Assembly (NCBI GenBank): GCA_963791065.1
Contig: CAWBQN010000020.1
Span: 44,347 to 108,346 of the forward strand
Direction of reading: 5' to 3'
DNA length: 64,000 nucleotides
Source: an uncultured Bacteroidales bacterium
Lineage (GTDB): Bacteria > Bacteroidota > Bacteroidia > Bacteroidales > VadinHA17
Shown: in pieces, positions 9,956 to 22,758 of the stretch
Position numbering within the stretch: position 1 is the stretch's first letter
How the letters are laid out: the number at the start of each line of letters is the position of its first letter
Notes under the pieces: generated by a model
What the model saw: only the letters and a program-made list of their open reading frames with translations
Databases searched by the model: none
What the model was told of the DNA's origin: nothing
Made by a program: the position numbers and the translations under genes

Positions 9956-10035
9956 CAGACTAAAATTATTGCAGATTCCGCAAGGAGCTAGAATTGCATT
10001 TAGTGGTTTTGTTGTTGCACTTTATACTCTGGATT

Positions 10036-11214
10036 ATGAAAATTATCAGCTATGATTGCTTCTCAGGTATCAGTGGAGACATGAATCTCGGTGCAATGAT
10101 CGATCTCGGAGTCGACAAAATTTTCCTGATTGATGAATTAAAAAAACTTAACCTTCCCGGGTGGCAGCTTATTGCAGAGAAAGATCAGCGACATGGTATT
10201 ACCGGGACTAAGGTAACAGTGAATCAGACCAGGCATGAACATGCCCACCGGCATCTTTCAGATATTCAAAAAATTATAAATGAATCAGCACTAGACAATA
10301 AAACCAGGGAATTAAGCAATAAAATATTTCTGAAGATTGCACATGCTGAAGCAACAGTTCATGGAACCTCAATTGATCAGATACATTTTCATGAGATTGG
10401 AGCAGTTGATTCGATTATTGATGTCGTTGGCGCAGCTATATGTTTTAACGCTTTAAAAGCTGATGAAGTTCATGTTTCACCGGTGGAACTTGGTGGTGGT
10501 TTTGTTTTATGCGATCATGGCAGACTTCCTGTTCCTGCTCCTGCAACTGCCGAACTTATTAAGGGTATACCCGTAAAAAAGGGAGGTGTCGACTTTGAAG
10601 CCACAACTCCGACAGGTGCAGCAATACTGGCTTCACTGGTAACTAATACTGACCCTGAACTGTCTTTTAAAATTGAAAGAACAGCATATGGTGTGGGCCA
10701 GAAAGACCCTTCGGATGTGCCTAATATTCTCAGGGTATTCATTGGTGAAAAAAATTTAAACACAGGATCCGGACATGATGCCATTCAGATAGAATGTAAC
10801 ATTGACGATATGAACCCTGAGTTTTTTGAATATATTTCCGAGAGGCTCTTCAAGGCAGGGGTGTCGGATGTCTTCTTTTCAAATATAATGATGAAGAAAA
10901 GCCGTCCCGGAATTTTGCTCAATGTTATATGTGAAGCCGGATTAGCTGATATAGTCAAAAATATCATTTTTACCGAATCTACCTCGCTGGGAATAAGGAC
11001 ATTCCCTTTCAGAAAGGATACGCTGACCAGAAAATTCGAAACTATTATGACAGTTTATGGCGAAATAAGCATAAAGCGTTCCTATTACAACGGAATAGAG
11101 GTATCCTGCAAACCCGAATATGAAGAATGTAAACATATTGCGGCCGATAAGCAGATTCCGGTCAAAGAGGTTTACAATAATGTTTTGGCACAAGTGGTAA
11201 GAAATAAAAAATAA
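10036..11214 (+). CDS. larC: Nickel-pincer cofactor biosynthesis protein LarC (nickel insertion, DUF111)
   Basis: MKIISYDCFSGISGDMNLGA is a typical LarC N-terminus. There is a His-rich segment (TRHEHAHRH) and HFHEIGAVDSIIDVVG. It is one continuous ORF; the track start at 9994 is probably an upstream extension. Confidence 0.85.
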   Translation: MKIISYDCFSGISGDMNLGAMIDLGVDKIFLIDELKKLNLPGWQLIAEKDQRHGITGTKVTVNQTRHEHAHRHLSDIQKIINESALDNKTRELSNKIFLKIAHAEATVHGTSIDQIHFHEIGAVDSIIDVVGAAICFNALKADEVHVSPVELGGGFVLCDHGRLPVPAPATAELIKGIPVKKGGVDFEATTPTGAAILASLVTNTDPELSFKIERTAYGVGQKDPSDVPNILRVFIGEKNLNTGSGHDAIQIECNIDDMNPEFFEYISERLFKAGVSDVFFSNIMMKKSRPGILLNVICEAGLADIVKNIIFTESTSLGIRTFPFRKDTLTRKFETIMTVYGEISIKRSYYNGIEVSCKPEYEECKHIAADKQIPVKEVYNNVLAQVVRNKK

Positions 11215-11216
11215 TT

Positions 11217-11966
11217 ATGAATGCTCTCGAAGTAGAAAAGATTCTTATTGATGTTAAGAACGGGAAAACCAGCATTGAAGAGGCCCTGGCCACTCTTAAG
11301 AATTTCCCGTATACTGATCTGGGTTTCGCAAGAATTGATCATCACCGTGAAATGAGGACAGGGTATCCTGAGATAATCTACTGCGCCGGGAAATCAATTG
11401 AGCAGGTCAGGGAGATCTTCAGAGTAATGTCAGAGAAGGAAACCAATGTCATTGGGACAAGGGCAAATGACGAAATGTACGAAGCAGTCAGAAGCCTTTC
11501 TTCTGAAGCTGTATATTATCCGGTCGCCAGAATTATCTCAATGCAAAGGAAAAAACCTAAGGTTCCTATGACGCGGATTGCAATCATTACAGCCGGAACT
11601 TCAGATATGCCGGTAGCAGAAGAAGCTGCAATAACTGCTGAGCTCCTGGGAAATAATGTCTTAAGGATTTATGATGCAGGTGTCGCAGGTATTCACCGGC
11701 TTGTTGATAAATTACCTGAAATACGAAACTGCAGGGTGATAATAGTTATTGCAGGTATGGAAGGTGCTCTAGCCAGTGTGGTCGGGGGATTAGTCGATAA
11801 ACCGGTAATTGCTGTGCCTACCAGCGTTGGCTACGGCGCCAATTTCGGAGGTATTTCCGCGCTTCTGGCCATGCTGACCAGCTGTTCAACAGGGGTCACA
11901 GTCGTGAATATTGACAATGGATTCGGTGCCGCTTTTGCTGCCAGTATGATTAATAAGATGGAGTGA
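11217..11966 (+). CDS. larB: Nickel-pincer cofactor biosynthesis protein LarB (AIR-carboxylase-like)
   Basis: 249 aa. The PurE-like C-terminal half (IAIITAGTSDMPVAEEA...AGMEGALASVVGG...PTSVGYG) and the DxHR N-terminal region fit LarB. It starts 3 nt after the larC stop. Confidence 0.85.
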   Translation: MNALEVEKILIDVKNGKTSIEEALATLKNFPYTDLGFARIDHHREMRTGYPEIIYCAGKSIEQVREIFRVMSEKETNVIGTRANDEMYEAVRSLSSEAVYYPVARIISMQRKKPKVPMTRIAIITAGTSDMPVAEEAAITAELLGNNVLRIYDAGVAGIHRLVDKLPEIRNCRVIIVIAGMEGALASVVGGLVDKPVIAVPTSVGYGANFGGISALLAMLTSCSTGVTVVNIDNGFGAAFAASMINKME

Positions 11967-11977
11967 TTCATTTTACG

Positions 11978-12583
11978 ATGTCAGGGAAAATATTACTCTC
12001 CACGGCATACTTGCCACCGGTAGAATACTTCTCCTTCATTTTACAGGCTGATGAGGTATATGTTGAAAAGGAAGAAAATTACTTAAAGCAGTCCTACAGG
12101 AACAGATGCTATATATTGTCTGCACATGGACCGCATCTTTTATCTGTTCCGGTTTATCTTGGCAGCCTGCACAAAACACCAATAAAAGAAATCAGGATAG
12201 ACTACTCCAAGAGGTGGCAGCAAGTGCATCTGAGAGCTATCACGGCTGCTTATGGCTCATCTCCTTTTTTTCAATTTTATTTTGAGTATATTGAAAAAGT
12301 TATCTCAAAGAAGACAGAATTTCTCCTTGACCTGAACATGGAACTTACTGAGTCCGTGCTGAAAATGCTCAATATAAAAATTAAACTCCTTTATACTGTT
12401 GAATTTGAACCTGCCGGAGGATCAGAAAATGATCTCAGATATAAAATATCACCAAAAGGATCTTCCCTATCCGCCTCCAAAGAATACCTGCAGGTTTTTA
12501 AAACAAGCGGTCAATTTGTTGGAGGGTTGAGTATTATAGACCTGATCTTTAATACAGGGCCGGAAGCGGGTGATTACCTGTAA
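11978..12583 (+). CDS. WbqC-family protein (function unknown)
   Basis: LLSTAYLPPVEYF...QSYRNRC...RWQQVHLRAI...SIIDLIFN matches WbqC-like family signatures. The start is either ATG at 11978 or GTG at 11963, which overlaps the larB stop. Confidence 0.65.
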   Translation: MSGKILLSTAYLPPVEYFSFILQADEVYVEKEENYLKQSYRNRCYILSAHGPHLLSVPVYLGSLHKTPIKEIRIDYSKRWQQVHLRAITAAYGSSPFFQFYFEYIEKVISKKTEFLLDLNMELTESVLKMLNIKIKLLYTVEFEPAGGSENDLRYKISPKGSSLSASKEYLQVFKTSGQFVGGLSIIDLIFNTGPEAGDYL

Positions 12584-12631
12584 AGTTGAGCATACTACCC
12601 AGGCAGTATTACCTAAGAAAGGCCAAAAAAA

Positions 12632-12655
12632 AGGCTGCCTCAAAAGAGGCAGCCT
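12632..12655. terminator. Bidirectional stem-loop terminator between convergent wbqC and the OM barrel gene
   Basis: Perfect 10-bp GC-rich stem aggctgcctc/gaggcagcct with loop aaaa. An A-run lies upstream and the hairpin sits between two convergent stop codons. Confidence 0.7.
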
Positions 12656-12679
12656 CAACTGTAGGAAGTCATCAAAGTA

Positions 12680-14176
12680 TCAAATACCAAATTTGTAACC
12701 GAAAGTCAGAGTGAACATATTTTTTATCGTATTCAGATTAGCGAGTGCCGGATCAATTCCTGTTTCCACAGGGTACAGAAAATACTTCTGGGAATATTTA
12801 TAATTGGTGAAAGCAAAGTCGATGGATAAGTTCTGTTCCCTTACGCCAACCCCGAATGATAAAGTATTATAGTCAAGGTTTGCATTATCCTGGTCCGATT
12901 TAAATGATTTTCCATAAAATCCGTAACCTGCTCTCAGGTAGAGGTTATTCAATCTGAACTCACCGCCAAGCCTTATGTTGCTTGTTGGTTTCAGACTATT
13001 TTTTATTGCTTGATTTTCCGGTTGGTAGTCATGGTTATCACCTGTCTGATAAAAATTTGCAGAACTATAATCAACAAATTCATAATCAGCGCTGAGGATT
13101 GCCAGTTTTTGAACCTGTACGCCTACTCCTGCCAATAGCCTGAAAGGTGTTGCCAGTCCATAATTATACCTTGAGGGGTTATTGGAGGATTCATACTGGT
13201 TGCCATCAGTGAAGTGTGATGTTATGTCATTGTAATAATATTCATCGATCTTATACCAGGTAGGAGAATGGAATGCCAGGCCTATGCGGACAGCGTCAAC
13301 AGGTTTGTAAATGGCTCCCAGCTTAAGTGAATATCCGGTTCCTCTATCTTCAAAATGATCAGTATAGGTAAAATCCTGGAATTGGGAGGGAAGCGTTGTA
13401 TTGGTCGACTCGAGATGTTCAAAGTGACTGGTGAATCTCAGAACAGAGACACCAAATGTAGCACCAAAGAAGATCTTATTTGAATAATTACCTCCAATAG
13501 AGAACGCATGTTCAGCAGTATATCCATCATTGGTAATAATACGCTTTACTGTCTGACCATATCTCGACGGAGGAGTATCGCCATAATTTGAATAGGTTGT
13601 TGCATAACGATTTCCACCTGACCCGGTAATTGTATCAATTACATAGGTATCCCAGGCAATTCTTTCAGCGCCCTGAAGATTATTAAAATTCGTTCCGACT
13701 CCCTGGTTTCCCAGGGCAGCCCAATAATCAGCCATGGAACTTGAGTTACTGACTCCCTGAATCACAATACTTTGACTCAGATTATTTGTTTTATTGAACG
13801 AATAACCGAGATTAAGTGTAATCAGTCCTGATTCTTTGTTATTCGAAATAATATTACCGACTATACCGATCTGACCCAGATTAAAATTATAGAGATAGTC
13901 TGTTGAGTTTCCGTTGAAGCCGGCAGTTGTTTTAATATGAAATAACTGAGGCGTAATTGTCAGTTCAGAGGATCTGAAGACACCAAGTCCTGCCGGGTTC
14001 TGACTCAAAGATGATATATCTCCTCCAAGGGCTGTGAAGGCACCTCCCATAGACATGAATCTGGCAGTTCCTCCATAAAATATCTGGGAATATCTTAATG
14101 CATCATCTACATTCTGAGCATTGACTCCGACAGCTACAGATATTAGTGCGAATATTAATAAGCTAATTCTTTTCAT
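12680..14176 (-). CDS. FadL/PorV-like outer-membrane beta-barrel protein
   Basis: It has a signal peptide (MKRISLLIFALISVAVGVNAQ), an N-terminal GGTARFMSMGGAF...NPAGLG motif typical of FadL-family barrels, alternating amphipathic strands, and a C-terminal FTLTFGYKFGI ending in an aromatic-containing strand. Confidence 0.6.
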   Translation of the reverse strand: MKRISLLIFALISVAVGVNAQNVDDALRYSQIFYGGTARFMSMGGAFTALGGDISSLSQNPAGLGVFRSSELTITPQLFHIKTTAGFNGNSTDYLYNFNLGQIGIVGNIISNNKESGLITLNLGYSFNKTNNLSQSIVIQGVSNSSSMADYWAALGNQGVGTNFNNLQGAERIAWDTYVIDTITGSGGNRYATTYSNYGDTPPSRYGQTVKRIITNDGYTAEHAFSIGGNYSNKIFFGATFGVSVLRFTSHFEHLESTNTTLPSQFQDFTYTDHFEDRGTGYSLKLGAIYKPVDAVRIGLAFHSPTWYKIDEYYYNDITSHFTDGNQYESSNNPSRYNYGLATPFRLLAGVGVQVQKLAILSADYEFVDYSSANFYQTGDNHDYQPENQAIKNSLKPTSNIRLGGEFRLNNLYLRAGYGFYGKSFKSDQDNANLDYNTLSFGVGVREQNLSIDFAFTNYKYSQKYFLYPVETGIDPALANLNTIKNMFTLTFGYKFGI

Positions 14177-14253
14177 ACGTTTCTTTTTTTGTAAGACTTT
14201 CCCTGCACTCTTTATTTAGAATGAACTTTTTAACTGCTATTTTATTGTTTAAA

Positions 14254-15657
14254 TTATCTTCTTCCGGAAGAGGAGCCACCACCACCTGAAGACCTGCCGC
14301 CACCCGATGAAGAACCTGAGGAATATGAACCGCTTGATCCTGAACTGGATGATCCGCTGCTATAGGATCTGCTGCTGCCGGAAGAAGCACCACTGTAAGA
14401 ACCTGAGGAATAACTGCCTCTCGATACACTGCTTCTCGACGGAACAGAATAGCTTCCCGAACTTCTGTAAGAATTTGATCTGACCTGGTTTGAGGGAGAA
14501 TATCCTGACGGTGATTCGCTTCTCCGTACACTGCTTCCTGAGGAACCACTTCTGACATTATTATACGTCCGCTGATACGAACCCTGAGACCCGCCGTTAT
14601 AAATCCTCGTATTATTAGTTGCACCCTGGTTTACTCTGCTATTGTTATAAGAGGGCCTGGTTGACATTCTTGGATTATTGTAACTTGGAGTATAAGTCCG
14701 GTTAACATTATTGTATGCCGGCTTCGTATTTGCCGGGCTTCTCTGGACGGAGGTGGAATTGTAAGGTACCTTCGACTGAACCTGTGCAGATCTTCTGTTA
14801 ACCTGACTGACAGTTTGTTGCTGGGAACTAACGCCTGATGTAACAGTCCTTCTCTGATTAGTACTCTGTGTTGCAGTTCCGGAAGTTCTTCGAGCTGAGG
14901 AACTAGCGTGGTACAGGTACGAATCCCTTCTTGAAGAACCAATACCGCCAACAGAGCTATTCCAGCTTGAGGAAAGATTGCTCGGTTTTGCCTGTCTCCC
15001 ATAGGTAACCTTATTATCACCATAGGAACGGTTATATCCATTATTAAATATTCCGCCATAATAACCACCATAATAACCTAAACCTCCATAATACCCTCCA
15101 TAAAAACCAGGATAATAACCCGGGTAGCCATATCCGTAATAATCACCATAGTATCCTCCATATCCATATCCATAAGGATTCATGAAATAGGAATTGCCAA
15201 ATCCATAGTATGGAAAACCTCCGTAGCCAAAACCATATCCGAATGAAGGATAGCCAAAGTCAAAATAGAATGGATCTCTCCAGTAAGGATCAAAATAGTT
15301 ACCATAAAACATTCTTAATCTTGAAGAATACGGAACCTGATCGTAATAATCATATCCTTCATTGTTATTATAGTAATTATTATCGACTACAGTGTCATAA
15401 TTAACTGCACCTGAATACTGGTCCGAAACCAGGGTATCTTGTGCATATTTATTATCATAGTAGTCTTTATTCTTTAAACTGCTTGTTGGGGCTTGTTCAT
15501 TAACAGGAGCGTTGTTCCTGGCAACCGGCTGATCTGAAGGTAAATAATAAAGATCATCGTACTCTGCTCCTGTATAAAGGCTTGATGTACAGGAGCTAAG
15601 AGCAAATAGAGCAAGGACTAATATTTGAGATAATGTTTTCATTTTAATTTCCCCCAT
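14254..15657 (-). CDS. Secreted lipoprotein with extreme low-complexity Tyr/Gly/Phe core and Ser/Arg/Asn-rich tail
   Basis: Lipobox LALFALSSC follows MKTLSQ (alternative start at 15642). The core has runs such as GYGFGYGGFPYYGFG and GYYGDYYGYGYPGYYPGFYGGYYGGLGYYGGYYGG. The C-terminal half is S/R/N/T/Q-rich and ends SSGGGRSSGGGGSSSGRR. Confidence 0.6.
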   Translation of the reverse strand: MGEIKMKTLSQILVLALFALSSCTSSLYTGAEYDDLYYLPSDQPVARNNAPVNEQAPTSSLKNKDYYDNKYAQDTLVSDQYSGAVNYDTVVDNNYYNNNEGYDYYDQVPYSSRLRMFYGNYFDPYWRDPFYFDFGYPSFGYGFGYGGFPYYGFGNSYFMNPYGYGYGGYYGDYYGYGYPGYYPGFYGGYYGGLGYYGGYYGGIFNNGYNRSYGDNKVTYGRQAKPSNLSSSWNSSVGGIGSSRRDSYLYHASSSARRTSGTATQSTNQRRTVTSGVSSQQQTVSQVNRRSAQVQSKVPYNSTSVQRSPANTKPAYNNVNRTYTPSYNNPRMSTRPSYNNSRVNQGATNNTRIYNGGSQGSYQRTYNNVRSGSSGSSVRRSESPSGYSPSNQVRSNSYRSSGSYSVPSRSSVSRGSYSSGSYSGASSGSSRSYSSGSSSSGSSGSYSSGSSSGGGRSSGGGGSSSGRR

Positions 15658-15748
15658 TGTTTTCTAAATAACACGCAAATATTGTACCAAAGAAACAAAT
15701 TAAATTAACTAAGTGTTATGAATCACTAAATATAATATTTTTTAATTT

Positions 15749-17040
15749 CTATCTCCTTCCTGATGATCTCCCCTTGGAGGAACCTGAACCGGATCCGGAG
15801 GATCTTGTACCTGATGATCTTGAAACGGATGATCTGGAACCGGATGATCTGGAAATACTGTGCGAGGAGCTGCTTCTGATCCCTGATCCTGAGCCGGACG
15901 GCCTGGAATAAGACGACCGTACCTGTGAAGAGTGTACTGCCCCGGATGAACGTGTGCCTACAGATGAATTAAGATGCGAAGTCCTGCTCGTGTTAGCGCT
16001 GTGTGTTACATAGTTGTTGTAACGGTTATTATTCGAATTGGATGTAACAGTTCTTGAATTGCCCGCATTATTGGCATATGAGTAACTAGTGCTCCTGGTA
16101 CCCAGGCTGCGGCCACCACCATTATTGTTACGGTTATTAATGCTATTTACGTTATTTCCGTTGTTGCTGTTGTGGCTGTTGTTACCATTATTTACACTGT
16201 TCACATTGTTTCCATTATTTCTGTTATTGCTGTGATTTCCGTCAATTACACTATTGATATTGTTCCCGTTATTTGTATGTATCCGGTTATAAGTGTGATT
16301 GCCATTGTTGCTGTTGTTGCCGTTGACATTGCCTGCTCCCCTGTTGCCTGTGTTCCTTGTATTAGTTCCATTGCGGAAATTATTGCCGGATGAATTATTT
16401 CTATTATAGGCATAAGATCCTGAATTGTTCCCCGGATTCCTTCTTGAAGGAGAAACCGAGTTTGAGTATCTGTCTGAGTTATACCTGTTATATCTGTTAT
16501 ACCTGTTATAATCATTATGTGCGTAGTAGGAATTCCTGTAGCCGTTGTAACCATAGCCATGGTCAAACCTGTTCCATCCAAAATAATCGTTGTGCCATCT
16601 GTAACCGAAATTAAAGTTAAAGTATTACAGGAAAGTACCAGTTGTTGTAATAATAAGGATCATACCCACCATAATAGCTTCCGTAGTAAGGATCATATCC
16701 ATAATAGCCTCCATAACCATAATCATATGAAAGGGTAGTTAAATGCCAATCCCAATCCGAAACCTCCGCCAAATAAATCCTAATCCCCACGAAAAAGGCT
16801 GGTAATCATACCAGTAAGGATCGGTAAATACCGGCGAGTAATAATCGAATGCTGCATATGATCTGTGAAACCTGTTAATCCTTGATGCAAAGTAATAAAT
16901 CATAATCATTATAATAATTATTTACGACCAGTTTGGCATCATCATTCCTGTTGTATCCGGAATCAGTCTCTCTGAGCATTTACAGTTGAAGCACCAAGCA
17001 GAAGTACTGATAAAATTCCGATGTAGTATTTTGCTTTCAT
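15749..17040 (-). pseudogene. Paralog of the 14254-15657 low-complexity secreted protein, interrupted by several frameshifts
   Basis: The ATG at 17040 gives signal peptide MKAKYYIGILSVLLLGASTVNAQ. Successive frames then read NNYYNDYD..FASRINRFHRSYAAFDYYSPVFTDPYWYDYQPF, YDYGYGGYYGYDPYYGSYYGG, and GYRWHNDYFGWNRFDHGYGYNGY..., followed by an N-rich tract and an S/R tail ending SKGRSSGRR. It is alignable with the neighbour at YSSRLRMFYGNYFDPYW. Confidence 0.55.
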
Positions 17041-17141
17041 GATGAACCTCCCTTTCTTTTTTGAGTAATAACTGATCTTTTTATTTATTTTTACGCAATC
17101 TATTTCTTTAAAATAAATGAAACAAATACCATACCAAAAAA

Positions 17142-18617
17142 ATGGCGAAGTTTTTAACTAACAGGGACGAGAATTATTCACAATGGTATAACGATCTGGT
17201 TATCAAGGCTGATCTGGCAGAAAATTCGGCTGTTCGCGGATGCATGGTTATTAAACCTTACGGGTATGCAATCTGGGAAAAGATACAGGCCGAACTCGAC
17301 AGACTATTTAAAGCTACCGGTCATGTAAATGCATATTTTCCTTTATTTATACCAAAATCATTCTTCAGCAAAGAGGCAGCCCATGTAGAAGGATTTGCAA
17401 AAGAGTGTGCAGTGGTTACTCATTATCGTCTCAAAAATGATGAAAACGGCAAAGGGATTGTTGTTGATCCGACTGCAAAACTTGAAGAAGAACTAATTAT
17501 CCGGCCTACTTCAGAAACCATCATCTGGCATTCATATAAAAACTGGATCCATTCATACAGGGATCTTCCAATTCTCATCAATCAATGGGCAAATGTTGTC
17601 AGATGGGAAATGAGGACCAGGCTTTTTCTCAGAACGACGGAATTTCTGTGGCAGGAAGGACATACGGCACATGCGACCAGAGAAGAAGCAATCGAAGAGA
17701 CCGAAAAGATGATCAAAGTTTATGCAGGCTTTTCGGAAAACTCAATGGCTCTGCCTGTTATTAAAGGATATAAGACTGAAAATGAACGTTTTGCAGGAGC
17801 CATCGATACATATGCCATTGAAGCACTTATGCAGGATGGAAAAGCATTGCAGGCAGGAACGAGCCATTTTCTGGGACAAAACTTTGCTAAAGCATTCGAA
17901 GTTCAGTTTACTGACAAAACAGGTAAGCTTGATTATGTCTGGGCAACCTCCTGGGGTGTTACAACCAGGCTTATAGGTGCTATAATCATGGGTCATGCCG
18001 ATAACCATGGCCTGATTTTGCCTCCGAAACTCGCACCGATCCAGGTTGTGATAATACCTATTTATAAAAATATTGAGCAGATAGGGGCATTGTCCGACAC
18101 AGCAATAAAAATCAAATCCGGACTGGAAGCTCTTGGCATATCAGTTAAATATGATGACAGGGATAATAATAAGCCCGGATGGAAATTTGCTGATTATGAA
18201 CTGAAAGGAGTTCCGGTGCGACTGGCGATAGGACCGCGTGATCTTGAAAATAAAACAATTGAGGTAGCCAGAAGGGATAATCTGACGAAAGAGACAATAC
18301 CTGTTGACAAGATAAATGAACATATCCCAGAGCTTCTTGAGGAAATTCAGACCAATATTTATAATAAGGCTCTGAATTTCAGAAAGGAAAATACTTTTTA
18401 TGTTGATAAATGGGACGATTTTCTGAAAGTTCTTGATAATCAGGGTGGATTTATTATGGCTCACTGGGACGGAACAGTTGAGACAGAAGAGAAAATTAAA
18501 GAGGAGACAAAAGCCACAATCAGATGTATTCCTTTTGACAGTCCTGAAGAAGGGGTAAATGTGTTTATTCAGGAAAACCATCCAAACAGAAGAGTCCTTT
18601 TTGCAAGATCCTATTAA
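17142..18617 (+). CDS. proS: Prolyl-tRNA synthetase (archaeal/eukaryote-like class II form)
   Basis: 491 aa. NYSQWYNDL..., [38 protein letters not shown] and C-terminal VLFARSY are ProRS signatures. Confidence 0.9.
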
Positions 18618-19435: not shown

Positions 19436-21363
19436 GTGCAAAATACGGAGAAATACAGGAATTGGTTAGGGCCAGGAATCTTACTGGCTCTTCTCTTCTC
19501 ATGTAACATTGCCAGTTCCCAAAATTATTCCCAGAGTGACACGATAAATAAGATTTCTCCCGCCATAATTAAAAAGATCAGAGACAATCTCATTATCTGT
19601 CATAATGAATTTTCTTTTAACAATGTCCCACTCACCTGCTGTCGTCAGAGACAGAAATCATCTTTTCTTCGACTCCCTGAAAGTAAAAGCTTCAAAAAAT
19701 AATCTGACCAGGAAATTATATGATTTTCTGGTAATTACTCCGCGACACTATATTTAAAAAACAGTTCACAGGTACAAGTGATGCCAACTATATAATCTAT
19801 TCAGGAAAAAAGATCAGAAAAATTACTGTAAAAAGACTAAATGTTTTCGGAGCAAATATAAATAATCCGGATTCGGAAAATCCTAATAAGATTGAAAATA
19901 TATTGAATAAAACCCATTTTAACACCAATGAAAATATAATCAGAAAAAACCTTCTTTTTTCGGAAGGTGATACAATCTCTCCCCTGATACTAAGTGACAA
20001 CGAAAGGATATTACGGCAACTTCCCTATATAGATGATGCCAGAATAATTGTTGTTCCTGTATCTGATGACGAAGCTGATATTGTGGTATATACAAAAGAT
20101 GTTTATTCTCTGGGTGGCTCATTCACTTACAACGGACTTAAAAAAGGAAACGTTTCGGTTTTTGATAAAAATATTTCGGAATCGGACATGAATTTGGGTT
20201 AGATATTCCCTATAATAATACTTTACCCGATTCGCCTGGCTTTGGAGTACACTATATTGCTGATAATATTGCAAAATCGTTTATAAATCTGAATGTTTAC
20301 TATCTTCATGGCCTGGGAGAAAAGACTTATGGATTTAACATAAGCCGTAAGCTGGTCAGCTCAACCACAAAATATGCCGGAGGAATTTCCATCCGTCAGA
20401 TGTACACAACTCAACTCTCGATACTCTCATAATCCCGGCGCCTCTGAAATATAATTTACAGGATTACTGGCTGTCGAGATCATTTCTTATCAATAAAGAA
20501 TCAGTGTCAAGAATAATAATTGGTGTCCGCTATACTAATAATAATGTTTTTGACCATCCGGTTATACTTCCGGAATCTTACTATAACCTGCAGAGATACA
20601 AGATTTTCCTTGCATCGGCTGCCTTGTCCGTTCAGAAATATACTAAAACCAATCTTATATATAGTTATGGCCGTACTGAAGATATCCCATATGGATCGAT
20701 GCTAAAGTTTACTACCGGCAGGGAATTTAATGAGTTTAAGCAAAGGACATATCTTGGAGGTGAGGTATCATTCAGCGTATCGAGTCCAATCCCTTGGATA
20801 TTTTTATTCCTATACCGGATTTTCAACTTATCTGAATAAGAATAAAACGGAACAAGGTGTACTATCTCTGGGACTAAATTATTTTTCAAACCTTGTGAAT
20901 CTGAGAAATTCCAAAATCCGGAATTTTGTTAATATTAATTATACCAGAGGATTTGGCAGATATACCAATGAAAACCTGCGATTCATTACTAATAATGGAT
21001 TCTCGGGATTTAGCCAATGATTCTGTAAACGGAACTCAAAGATTAACATTGAGTCTTGAATCTGTGCTGTTCAGCCCGATAAATCTCTACGGTTTCAGAT
21101 TCGCTTTTTTCGGTTTTGCTGATTTTTCTTTTCTTTCAGCTACGAACCAAATCGTGGGAAACGGATATTCACTTTCAAGTATTGGAGTAGGCATAAGGAT
21201 CCGAAATGATAACCTGGTATTTAATACCTTTCAGCTGAGGATTGGTTATTTTCCCAATTACCCGCCCTATTCGACAATATCCCCGGTAACTGTTTCCGGA
21301 GAACAATTATTACATCCGGCTAATTTTGATCCGGGCCCCCCGTCTGTCATCCCTTACAGGTAA
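19436..21363 (+). pseudogene. POTRA-containing BamA/surface-antigen (D15)-like outer-membrane protein, fragmented by at least 6 frameshifts
   Basis: The signal peptide is followed by fragments in rotating frames. These are FFDSLKVKASKNNLTRKLYDFLV, YSGKKIRKITVKRLNVFGANI...NIIRKNLLFSEGD (POTRA-like), GFGVHYIADNIAKSF, IIIGVRYTNNNVF..., and the C-terminal barrel part GFRFAFFGFADFSF...FQLRIGYFPN. Confidence 0.55.
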
Positions 21364-21420: not shown

Positions 21421-22758
21421 ATGACTGATGAATTTAAAAAGTTTATTTCAGAGAACAAGATTTTAAAACAGGGTGATAAAATTTTACTCACAGTCAGTGG
21501 CGGCATAGATTCAATGGTGATGGCTCACCTGTTCCTTAAACAGAATTATAAGATAGGTATAGCTCACTGCAATTTCTCGCTGAGAGACGGAGAATCAGAT
21601 ATGGATGAGGAACTGGTCCGTAAGTTTGCATCTGATCATGGTATTCCATTCTTTAACATCAGGTTTGAAACAAAAACATATGCAAAAAAGAAGCGGGTTA
21701 TCAGTGCAAATGGCAGCCAGGGACCTAAGATACAAATGGTTCGAAGAGGTGCGAGAAAATAACGGATATGATTCTATAGCCGTTGCTCATAACCTTAATG
21801 ATAATATTGAAACCCTTCTGATAAACCTGATCAGGGGAACCGGAATAACCGGAATGACAGGAATGAAACCTGTAAGCAAAAGGATTATAAGACCATTGCT
21901 GTTCGCAACCAGACAGGAAATAACTGCATTATTGCAAAAAACATAGAATAACATTTCGTGAGGACAGATCAAATGCTGATACAAAATATACCAGGAACAA
22001 AATCAGGCACCTGGTAATTCCGGTTCTTAAGGAGATCAATCCCTCAATTGAACTGACACTAAATGAAACAGCAGAAAGATTTTCAGGGTATAATGAAATC
22101 ATATCGGGTTACATTTCAAATTTGAGGAAAACTATTTCCTCAGAGAAAGAAAAATTCATCACATTTAATATCAGCCAGCTGAAACCATATCTGCATAATA
22201 AGTCAGTATTATTCGAGCTGTTTAAGCCATACGGAATGTCCAATGCACTGTTGACTGACCTGATTAAAGTAATTGATGGTAACACAGGTGGTCAGGTCAT
22301 TACGGGCACTCACAGAATGATTAAAAACAGGAAGGAGATAATTGTTTCCGAAAAAGAAATCACGAGTGACAAGGAGTATACCATAAATAAGTTACAGGAC
22401 TTTATCAGCGTCCCTGGCATCAGATCAGCTAAAATTGTCAGAATCACAGAGACTTATTCAATACCATCCGATCCATCAATTGCTTGTATTGATTATGAAA
22501 AAGTGATTTTCCCCCTGACAATCAGAAAATGGAAGAGCAGGAGATCACTTTTACCCTCTGGGAATGAACAGGAAGAAAAAGCTCAGTGATTATTTCATTG
22601 ATAACAAGTATTCGAAACTTGACAAAGAAAACATATTCATTCTAGAATCGGACGGAAAAATTGCCTGGATCATCGGGGACAGGATTGACGACAGGTTCAA
22701 AATAACCAGTTCAACAACAAGAGGTCTTCTGATCAAATCCAATACTAAACCTTTATGA
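21421..22758 (+). pseudogene. tilS: tRNA(Ile)-lysidine synthetase TilS with three frameshifts (about 21687, about 21926, about 22535)
   Basis: The PP-loop LLTVSGGIDSMVMAHL is present. The reading then runs AARDLRYKWFEE...AHNLNDNIETLLINLIRGTG, then HYCKKHRITFREDRSNADTKYTRNKIRH, and the C-terminal part is KKKLSDYFIDNKYSK. The first shift sits in an A6 run. Confidence 0.85.

Follow-up and report, generated by a model that had tools for sequence, protein, structure and literature searches.

This study concerns a 64,000-nucleotide (nt) stretch of an uncultured Bacteroidales bacterium (assembly GCA_963791065.1, contig CAWBQN010000020.1, positions 44,347 to 108,346 of the forward strand), hereafter the window. 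Three consecutive minus-strand genes in it, in the order YG2, YG1 and barrel, encode two paralogous tyrosine- and glycine-rich exported proteins and an outer-membrane beta-barrel of the FadL fold. Among the barrel-lipoprotein pairs of Bacteroidota, the module is a variant whose lipoprotein belongs to an uncharacterised but widespread family of disordered proteins. The reading that we favour, to which we assign a probability of about 0.4, is that YG1 and the barrel make up a two-gene module of the outer membrane that is conserved in Bacteroidota, that YG1 is a disordered polymer, anchored by lipid and able to associate with itself, which sits on a cognate FadL-like barrel, and that YG2 is a lineage-specific extra copy of the polymer. 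The features of the locus are as follows.

12680-14176, minus strand: gene of the FadL-fold barrel, 498 amino acids (aa), with a signal peptide ending ...GVNA before QN.
14177-14253, minus strand: gap between YG1 and the barrel gene, 77 nt, both genes on the same strand.
14254-15642, minus strand: gene of the YG1 lipoprotein, 462 aa, predicted to be fully disordered.
15749-17040, minus strand: gene of YG2, the signal-peptide paralog of YG1, 428 aa after frame correction.
17142-18617, plus strand: proS (prolyl-tRNA synthetase), divergent from the YG genes.
12631-12656, minus strand: terminator-like hairpin just past the barrel stop, with an 11-bp stem that has 7 GC pairs, followed by a T-run.

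A preliminary description of this region, made from the letters of the DNA, had reported two adjacent minus-strand genes with signal peptides, one of them with a lipobox, and with a shared layout. All of these features were found at the positions given for them, the two genes are true paralogs, and the quoted strings (YSSRLRMFYGNYFDPYW, GYYGDYYGYGYPGYYPGFYGGYYGGLGYYGGYYGG, the FASRINRF...VFTDPYW block and the ...SSSGRR end) are all present. The observation itself is confirmed, and the interpretation placed on it is partly supported.

YG1 is a protein exported by the Sec pathway, processed by signal peptidase II (SPII) and lipidated at its N-terminus, without a predicted fold. Its true start is the ATG at 15642 (MKTLSQ..., as in all homologs) and not the upstream ATG at 15657, and Cys18 of its lipobox is invariant in the family alignment. 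The AlphaFold2 (AF2) model of YG1, built on a 42-sequence alignment, had a predicted local distance difference test (pLDDT) value of 42 and, outside the signal peptide, was devoid of secondary structure; despite this predicted disorder, approximately eight short motifs were conserved in the family alignments. Because AF2 showed no structure and yet the boxes were conserved, YG1 was taken to be intrinsically disordered, with linear motifs that are conserved. The conserved boxes comprise the lipobox Cys, EYDDLYYxPSD, YYDNxYAxDTLVSD, NNYY...YSxRLRRFYGNYFxPYWRDPFY, the aromatic/Gly core, YGRRERPSxLSSRWN, SSRRDSY, RPEYNSVNRTYTPSYNNPRMSTRPSYNNSRV, YSVPSRRS and a poly-Ser tail with a terminal GRR. 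The principal ones lie in the gene as follows.

15589-15642, minus strand: signal peptide and lipobox, residues 1-18, ending ...ALSSC, with the lipobox LSSC.
15532-15564, minus strand: EYDDLYYxPSD box, 9-19 residues past the lipidated Cys, with D29, D30 and Y32 invariant.
15415-15462, minus strand: YYDNxYAxDTLVSDxY box, YG1 residues 61-76, with N64, D69 and T70 invariant.
15265-15381, minus strand: the most conserved box of the family, NNYY...YxxR(L/I)xRF(Y/H)...Y(F/Y)xPYWxDPFY, common to YG1, YG2 and distant members.
15052-15264, minus strand: aromatic/Gly core, residues 127-197.
14632-14724, minus strand: the box KPAYNNVNRTYTPSYNNPRMSTRPSYNNSRV, with three PxYNNxR-like units.
14257-14451, minus strand: YSVPSRSS box and then the Ser-rich basic tail, which ends ...SSSGRR-COOH.

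The EYDDLYYxPSD box is a candidate docking motif. The invariant D-T-L within AxDTLVSD fits the general O-glycosylation motif of Bacteroidota, D-(S/T)-(A/I/L/V/M/T), and may be a conserved glycosylation site. Phe112 in the NNYY...PYW box is invariant over 38 YG1-type and YG2-type sequences. Residues 121-180 hold 28 Tyr, Phe or Trp and 17 Gly out of 60, and the aromatic/Gly core turns rich in Trp, Tyr, Ser and Pro in distant members. Ten positions are invariant in the KPAYNNVNRTYTPSYNNPRMSTRPSYNNSRV box (P308, Y310, R315, Y317, P319, Y321, P324, P330, Y332 and N333), which is still recognisable in distant members as R.YTP.Y..PR...RP.YN.

The composition of YG1 is dominated by Ser (20%), Tyr (14%), Gly (13%), Asn (8%) and Arg (7%), with 63 Tyr, 32 Arg and 15 triplets of the form [GS]-aromatic-[GS]. 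Moreover, its charge is segregated, with a net charge of -10 over the acidic aromatic/Gly part (residues 1-180) and of +29 over the basic Ser/Arg part (residues 181-462). Tyr/Gly-rich and Arg-rich segments within one chain are the sticker composition that drives phase separation of FUS-family proteins. The likeness to eukaryotic low-complexity proteins, which had been pointed out in the preliminary description, holds for this Tyr and Arg pattern and for the succession of an acidic aromatic block and a basic Ser/Arg block. By composition and predicted disorder, YG1 would belong to the prion-like or phase-separating low-complexity class, which is a functional class and no homology family. No protein-level repeat units were found in YG1; Tandem Repeats Finder (TRF) gave short DNA tandem repeats mainly in YG2, and two arrays of approximately two copies in the YG1 core. 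The ratio of nonsynonymous to synonymous substitution (dN/dS) was calculated against L002, the closest relative found, a Microflora Danica long-read metagenome-assembled genome (MAG) that is 95% identical in DNA over YG2. The values were 0.13 for YG1, 0.12 for the corrected YG2 and 0.13 for the barrel, and both YG1 and the barrel are under purifying selection.

The preliminary description had set beforehand, as a check that could overturn it, whether conservation extends beyond nucleotide composition. It does: at least 248 homologs of similar length were found for YG1 (best HMMER match E=5e-143), all labelled 'hypothetical' and none with a Pfam domain, and the conserved motifs and the low dN/dS values point the same way. 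Furthermore, among 1.84 billion cluster representatives (50% identity), a family profile that combined sequences of the YG1 and YG2 types matched 3,174 at E<=1e-3, of which 1,422 reached E<=1e-10 and 134 reached E<=1e-30. The named members are all hypothetical proteins of Bacteroidales or Bacteroidota MAGs, many of them from fen, peat and sediment, with the sole exception of WP_423128144.1 from the cultured Gaoshiqia hydrogeniformans (Prolixibacteraceae, Marinilabiliales), for which the RefSeq name is likewise 'hypothetical protein'. YG1, YG2 and 30 family members had no match in Pfam or NCBIfam, the family profile gave noise at E>=0.2 against PDB sequences, with the BamH chains not matched, and a search of the literature on Tyr/Gly-rich Bacteroidetes envelope proteins returned nothing relevant. 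These results agree with the earlier statement that the layout belongs to no characterised family, and show a family that is large and yet absent from Pfam and NCBIfam.

Distant members are 440-580 aa long and 25-30% identical, and keep the whole layout: the lipobox, a DD(L/V/I)YY box, an acidic linker, a (V/I)INNYY...SR(I/L)xRFH...YYDPFY box, a W/Y/G core, YGxR, the R.YTP motif given above, YSxPSRS and a Ser tail ending in GGRR. The net charge of their N block ranges from -2 to -22 and that of their C block from +19 to +37, and they hold 41-64 Tyr and 26-54 Arg. Of 211 full-length members, 174 have a lipobox and 190 a C-terminus of the RR type; of the 174 with a lipobox, 168 also have a DD[LVIM][YF] box. 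A distant member of the signal peptidase I (SPI) type, P0119 (L082:1314-2654), has the DDLYY and RLSRFH boxes and a C-terminus of the RR type but no lipobox; neither a barrel nor proS lies near its gene, whose neighbours are an HNH-like gene and a DEAD-box helicase gene.

The linkage of YG1 to the barrel was followed in two sets of loci. The close set comprised 81 loci, all from a single clade of uncultured Bacteroidales, and in each of the 77 that extended far enough YG1 was followed by the barrel. The whole 10-kb neighbourhood (proS, wbqC, larB and larC) was syntenic in these loci, so that their synteny proves little, and distant loci were therefore sampled. These were seven, one of them from the cultured Gaoshiqia, and their proS was 66-74% identical. 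All seven had the order proS on the minus strand, then the lipoprotein gene and the barrel ortholog on the plus strand, with barrel orthologs 27-37% identical over their full length and lipoprotein-barrel gaps of 10-119 nt; for the barrel orthologs behind the lipoprotein in distant loci, a range of 27-48% was also obtained. The outer flanks differed in every one of them (NDH2, S26 peptidases, ccm genes, LpxK, infB and others), and proS was the divergent neighbour of the module in every module locus examined. The pair thus recurs within the class Bacteroidia, in uncultured Bacteroidales and in one cultured Marinilabiliales strain. YG1 always lies directly upstream of an orthologous FadL-fold barrel, with which it is apparently co-transcribed, and the dedicated barrel partner proposed in the preliminary description is co-conserved far beyond the clade of the window.

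Such adjacency might nevertheless reflect inherited gene order without functional coupling, in which case the YG proteins would act alone as disordered envelope proteins, for instance sensing the peptidoglycan mesh or serving as spacers or to buffer hydration. The syntenic neighbourhood of the close relatives would fit this explanation, as would the lack of any barrel near P0119 and the fact that proS, which has no plausible functional link to the module, is an equally invariant neighbour. We consider it unlikely, however, and coupling was favoured over chance adjacency because the pair was kept in all seven distant loci, on the same strand and at short distance, while the outer flanks were reshuffled. 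In addition, a strong terminator-like hairpin is found after the barrel only, and the evolutionary distances of the barrel and the YG1 N-terminus correlated at r=0.67, with a partial correlation given proS of 0.54 that was the highest of all gene pairs tested, a result that is no more than suggestive of coupling, as r was given without a significance test and fast-evolving genes tend to correlate anyway.

The transcription signals of the module were also inspected. The hairpin at 12631-12656 is the likely end of the transcription unit, and no comparable hairpin was found in the YG1-barrel gap or the YG2-YG1 gap. A sigma-70 promoter scan gave a result no better than shuffles, and the Bacteroides -7 motif TAnnTTTG had no match in the three intergenic gaps and was not enriched in the window, so that no promoter was assigned. 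An Rfam search of the whole window returned no RNA family. The proS-side intergenic region (17041-17141) and the equivalent gaps of 85-134 nt in L088-L094 had no Rfam element and no recognisable promoter motif.

A counterpart with the same gene order has been described in Flavobacterium johnsoniae, in which the lipoprotein Fjoh_4940 adjoins the FadL homolog Fjoh_4941 (PMC12045153), Fjoh_4939 is a proline-tRNA ligase, and Fjoh_4940 is listed as an SPII 'periplasm-facing lipoprotein' with no domain and of unknown function (PMC12045153 supplement). On depletion of TamL, Fjoh_4940 rose 2.6-fold and Fjoh_4941 5.6-fold, the authors suggested a functional link, and both proteins were detected by mass spectrometry (PMC12045153). 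The preliminary description had named absent homologs, conservation of nucleotide composition only, a barrel that is not co-conserved and a lack of expression as findings that would count against it. None of those checkable here was encountered, and evidence of expression comes solely from these positional counterparts in F. johnsoniae.

The barrel gene 77 nt downstream of YG1 had been called FadL-like and PorV-like, and the two names fared differently. The protein matched Pfam PF03349 (Toluene_X/FadL) over residues 36-463 with 39.2 bits against a curated cut-off of 29.7 (E=3.9e-10), which bears out the first name. Its AF2 model had a pLDDT of 72, with a poor hatch region (pLDDT <50 for residues 1-66), and the top 25 PDB matches of this model in Foldseek were all of the FadL fold (BamG, TodX, FadL and CymD; E 6e-15 to 2e-8). 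From AF2 and Foldseek together, the protein is a 14-stranded barrel with an N-terminal hatch, and the NPA motif of the hatch (N59-P60-A61) is invariant in 30 close and 8 distant orthologs. The second name did not hold, since the NCBIfam profile PorV_fam (NF033709) gave 30.9 bits against a cut-off of 90 and PorV2 gave 32.3 against 325, and the barrel was rejected as a PorV. It was likewise rejected as a BamG: phmmer and profile hmmsearch against all PDB chains, including 9hiv_F, 9hjm_F and 9n2d_B, gave no match at E<=10, and the structural similarity to BamG was no better than that to TodX or FadL. Because no BamG sequence match was found and the PorV profiles were far below their cut-offs, the barrel was filed as a distinct branch of the FadL family, neither BamG nor PorV.

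The structural likeness to BamG bears on a second explanation, in which the pair would be an accessory of outer-membrane biogenesis, that is, a diverged BamG/BamH-like pair, or one linked to TAM (the module for translocation and assembly), that associates with an Omp85 insertase. In Bacteroidota, the lipoprotein BamH is held by its conserved, lipidated N-terminal tail in the FadL-like barrel BamG (PMC12578637, PMC12611786). The best Foldseek match of the window barrel was BtBamG (E=6e-15), followed in order by TodX, PgBamG, a P. aeruginosa FadL homolog, E. coli FadL and FjBamG, so that PgBamG and FjBamG were also in the top 8; these matches had TM scores of 0.5-0.6 and 12-14% identity, and for BtBamG, TodX, PgBamG and FadL the E values were 1e-15 to 1e-11. 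Furthermore, BamG2 and BamH2 are encoded in a putative operon (PMC12578637), and the F. johnsoniae counterparts respond to TamL depletion. On the other side stand the lack of sequence similarity to solved BamG chains, with a single sequence or with a profile, and the Foldseek scores of TodX and FadL, which are as good; the window barrel also exceeds BamG in length by approximately 90 residues. The lipoproteins are unlike as well, BamH being folded, surface-located and equipped with an export signal and YG1 being disordered and without such a signal, and no YG profile matched the BamH chains in the PDB. Moreover, the published pull-downs name Bt4367 and Fjoh_1412 as BamG, and their lists do not name the proS-linked FadL homolog or its lipoprotein (PMC12578637, PMC12611786). 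A pair linked to BAM (the machinery for beta-barrel assembly) or TAM is thus a distinctly unlikely explanation.

The same barrel evidence is also compatible with a role in substrate capture, in which the aromatic-rich disordered lipoprotein would be a 'sponge' that binds hydrophobic or aromatic compounds (fatty acids, lignin-derived aromatics or polyphenols) and passes them to or from an ordinary FadL-type channel; the two would then be coupled functionally, for the sake of transport. The Toluene_X match, the FadL/TodX fold and the invariant NPA motif agree with such a role, as do the operon-like conservation of the pair and the origin of many members in MAGs from fen, peat and sediment; barrel-lipoprotein transport pairs are also a hallmark of Bacteroidota (PMC12578637). 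However, known FadL channels function without a lipoprotein partner, a periplasm-facing lipoprotein cannot capture an external substrate, and the highly conserved basic Ser/Arg half with its GRR end has no obvious role in binding hydrophobic ligands. The module is also not specific to one habitat, as it occurs in F. johnsoniae and in gut or termite-type MAGs. We regard substrate capture as possible but doubtful.

The preliminary description had proposed an extracellular matrix or amyloid, and a secreted functional amyloid was weighed as a further explanation: YG1 and YG2 would be exported through the barrel and would polymerise outside the cell in the manner of curli or Fap. The signal peptides, the prion-like composition (Y/G-rich, N-rich and S-rich) and the dedicated barrel downstream are in its favour. 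AF2 usually models solenoids of the CsgA/FapC type, but it predicted no beta structure, and thus no beta-solenoid, for YG1; nor were imperfect amyloid repeats of the curli or Fap kind found, TRF having given short DNA repeats only. FadL-type barrels are plugged small-molecule channels and no protein secretion pores, and the window barrel has such an N-terminal plug and is not a secretion channel of the CsgG or FapF type. YG1 is lipid-anchored, and the surface-export signal as defined in PMC12578637 (two or more acidic residues among the approximately six after the Cys) was present in 0 of the 174 lipobox-bearing members, in which the acidic DD pair lies at +9 to +12. The extracellular location that had been proposed is likewise at odds with the F. 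johnsoniae lipoprotein of the same gene order, which is classed as periplasm-facing (PMC12045153). Because of the lipid anchor, the plugged FadL fold and the lack of amyloid repeats and of predicted beta structure, curli-like secretion was considered the least likely explanation and is very improbable. The rough order of plausibility of these alternatives runs from substrate capture through inherited synteny and a BAM- or TAM-linked pair to a curli-like amyloid.

YG2 differs from YG1 in its leader, which is of the signal-peptidase-I type (...STVNA before QR), and in having no lipid anchor and no DDLYY box. It keeps the NNYY...SRINRFH...DPYW box, an N-rich core and an S/R tail ending in SSGRR. 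In the window, YG2 is readable only through five frame changes, all in the same direction.

16624-16964, minus strand: stretch with five single-base insertions in alignment to L002, at approximately 16964, 16899, 16778, 16728 and 16624.

Removal of these five insertions gave an uninterrupted YG2 of 428 aa ending in SSGRR. The insertions are most likely assembly errors, because dN/dS in the corrected frame was 0.12 over 396 codons, like that of YG1 and the barrel; because tilS and an adjacent 649-aa gene are also frameshifted in the window; because L002 itself shows a broken proS and a single indel in YG2; and because intact YG2 orthologs are common. Among the latter is a 378-aa ortholog in L001, and 84 YG2 homologs were found in all. 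The essential tilS (tRNA-Ile lysidine synthetase; 21421-22758, plus strand) is split into at least four open reading frames (ORFs), with at least three frame changes against the Gaoshiqia ortholog, and the gene of approximately 649 aa (19436-21363, plus strand) is spread over many ORFs with at least four frame changes.

The five insertions inside 340 nt could also be taken as a sign that YG2 is a decaying pseudogene and the tandem paralog a relic, all the more as the single YG2 indel of L002 lies right after the signal peptide and as YG2 is present in approximately 49 of 73 close loci and missing from the other third. This reading is improbable, and it was rejected on the dN/dS value and the frameshifts in the essential tilS; moreover, all five changes are +1 insertions, with no stop-gain substitutions. 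Besides the insertions, three in-frame indels separate the window YG2 from that of L002. The N-rich core is partly made of DNA tandem repeats, and in-frame repeats of 54 nt x2.4, 9 nt x3.7 and 15 nt x4 were found at 16143-16273, 16478-16510 and 15795-15854, respectively. Since the in-frame differences from L002 include indels of 9 nt and 3 nt within repeats, the low-complexity parts of YG2 appear to change length quickly.

On the reading favoured here, YG1 would be anchored in the outer membrane, most likely at its periplasmic face, because the acidic surface-export signal is absent. It may dock on its cognate barrel through N-terminal motifs, namely the DDLYY box and the NNYY...RIxRFH...PYW box, and the rest of the chain would be a diblock polymer with an acidic aromatic/Gly block (-10) and then a basic Ser/Arg/Asn block (+29). 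Through Tyr-Arg contacts and contacts between the oppositely charged blocks, the chains could associate with one another, forming a tethered gel-like or condensate-like layer at the barrel. YG2, in which the aromatic box, the core and the basic tail are retained and the anchor and the DDLYY box are lost, might enter this assembly as a soluble co-polymer in the periplasm. That the F. johnsoniae counterparts rise on TamL depletion points to a possible role in outer-membrane homeostasis or stress buffering.

Several points weigh against this reading. The physical complex of YG1 and the barrel is putative. The barrel keeps the canonical NPA motif of the FadL hatch, which would fit an ordinary small-molecule channel that needs no protein partner, and, since proS is equally tightly linked, part of the lipoprotein-barrel adjacency could be inherited gene order; the caution attached above to the distance correlation belongs here as well. 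The F. johnsoniae counterpart Fjoh_4940 is a positional one, matched by gene order. Self-association of the YG proteins into a gel or condensate is suggested by composition alone, and the topology is deduced from a missing canonical export signal, when a non-canonical signal of this kind could lie in the DD box at +9 to +12.

A wider form of the proposal is speculative and in our view unlikely. In it, an extracytoplasmic condensate or hydrogel, tethered to the membrane, would be made by many Bacteroidota from a lipoprotein whose Tyr/Gly and Arg/Ser blocks share the sticker pattern of eukaryotic FUS-type proteins; a dedicated FadL-type barrel would nucleate it, and a soluble paralog would add to it in some lineages. 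If true, the Bacteroidota envelope would have a structural or stress-buffering layer that had gone unrecognised. If it acts in the proposed way, the module would also represent a new type of Bacteroidota barrel-lipoprotein pair, in which the lipoprotein is a conserved, fully disordered block polymer and not a folded ligand binder or scaffold, and a rare bacterial extracytoplasmic test case for phase-separation sequence rules derived from eukaryotic proteins. It is directly testable, because one member belongs to the cultured Gaoshiqia hydrogeniformans and an expressed positional equivalent exists in the genetic model F. johnsoniae.

Other features of the region can be described briefly. Long ORFs in alternative frames overlie YG1 and YG2 at 14163-14624, 14631-15071 and 16246-16581 on the minus strand and at 16172-16738 on the plus strand. 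They were rejected as genes and are by-products of low-complexity or repetitive codon usage, as all homology lies in the YG frames, and they could mislead gene callers. The 649-aa gene, which sits between tilS and proS in related genomes, has a lipobox-like leader (...LLFSC) and a POTRA-like sequence; Pfam gave no match for its protein, including intact orthologs such as L086:186-2135, or for a 230-aa neighbour. On the other side of the module, larC (Ni_insertion) and larB (AIRC) are directly adjacent at 9994-12583 on the plus strand, followed by a WbqC-like gene. In the more distant relatives L001 and L086, a gene for a LarE-like ATP-pyrophosphatase lies between larB and larC; it is not found there in the window or in L002.

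The module can be compared with several known systems. The hydrophobic-compound channels E. coli FadL and Pseudomonas TodX share with the window barrel the Pfam family, the fold and the N-terminal hatch that bears the NPA motif, whereas the window barrel is 12-14% identical to them, approximately 60-90 residues longer, with larger loops, and always paired with a disordered lipoprotein. PorV and PorQ, the shuttle proteins of the type IX secretion system (T9SS), are also FadL-superfamily barrels of Bacteroidota that bind protein partners, and the window barrel has a weak NCBIfam match to them; the YG proteins are without the T9SS C-terminal domain, and PorV was outside the top 25 structural matches. 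The composition of the YG proteins, with Tyr/Gly-rich and Arg-rich segments in one chain, recalls the prion-like plus RGG low-complexity proteins of the FUS family; CsgF, with its surface condensate, is a precedent for a bacterial condensate located in the envelope (bioRxiv 10.1101/2022.10.20.513119). This likeness is compositional and without homology, and the YG proteins differ in being exported and lipid-anchored.

Lipoproteins held by barrels have precedents in BamG-BamH and in RcsF with its outer-membrane protein (OMP). In the RcsF complexes, a beta-barrel OMP holds the lipoprotein, or is threaded by it, at a segment that is disordered and positively charged (PMC9907809); unlike YG1, RcsF has a folded signalling domain, general porins as partners and no Tyr/Gly core, and the two are not homologous. 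The BamG-BamH pair resembles the module more closely in architecture, with a FadL-fold 14-stranded barrel and a partner lipoprotein, and BtBamG was the top structural match. BamH, in contrast, is a folded surface scaffold with an acidic export signal, YG1 is disordered and has no such signal, and the window barrel has no sequence-level similarity to BamG. The Fjoh_4939-4941 locus of F. johnsoniae, for which no second copy of the YG2 type has been reported, presents the same triad of proS, an SPII lipoprotein and a Toluene_X/FadL barrel, likened to that of the window by gene order alone.

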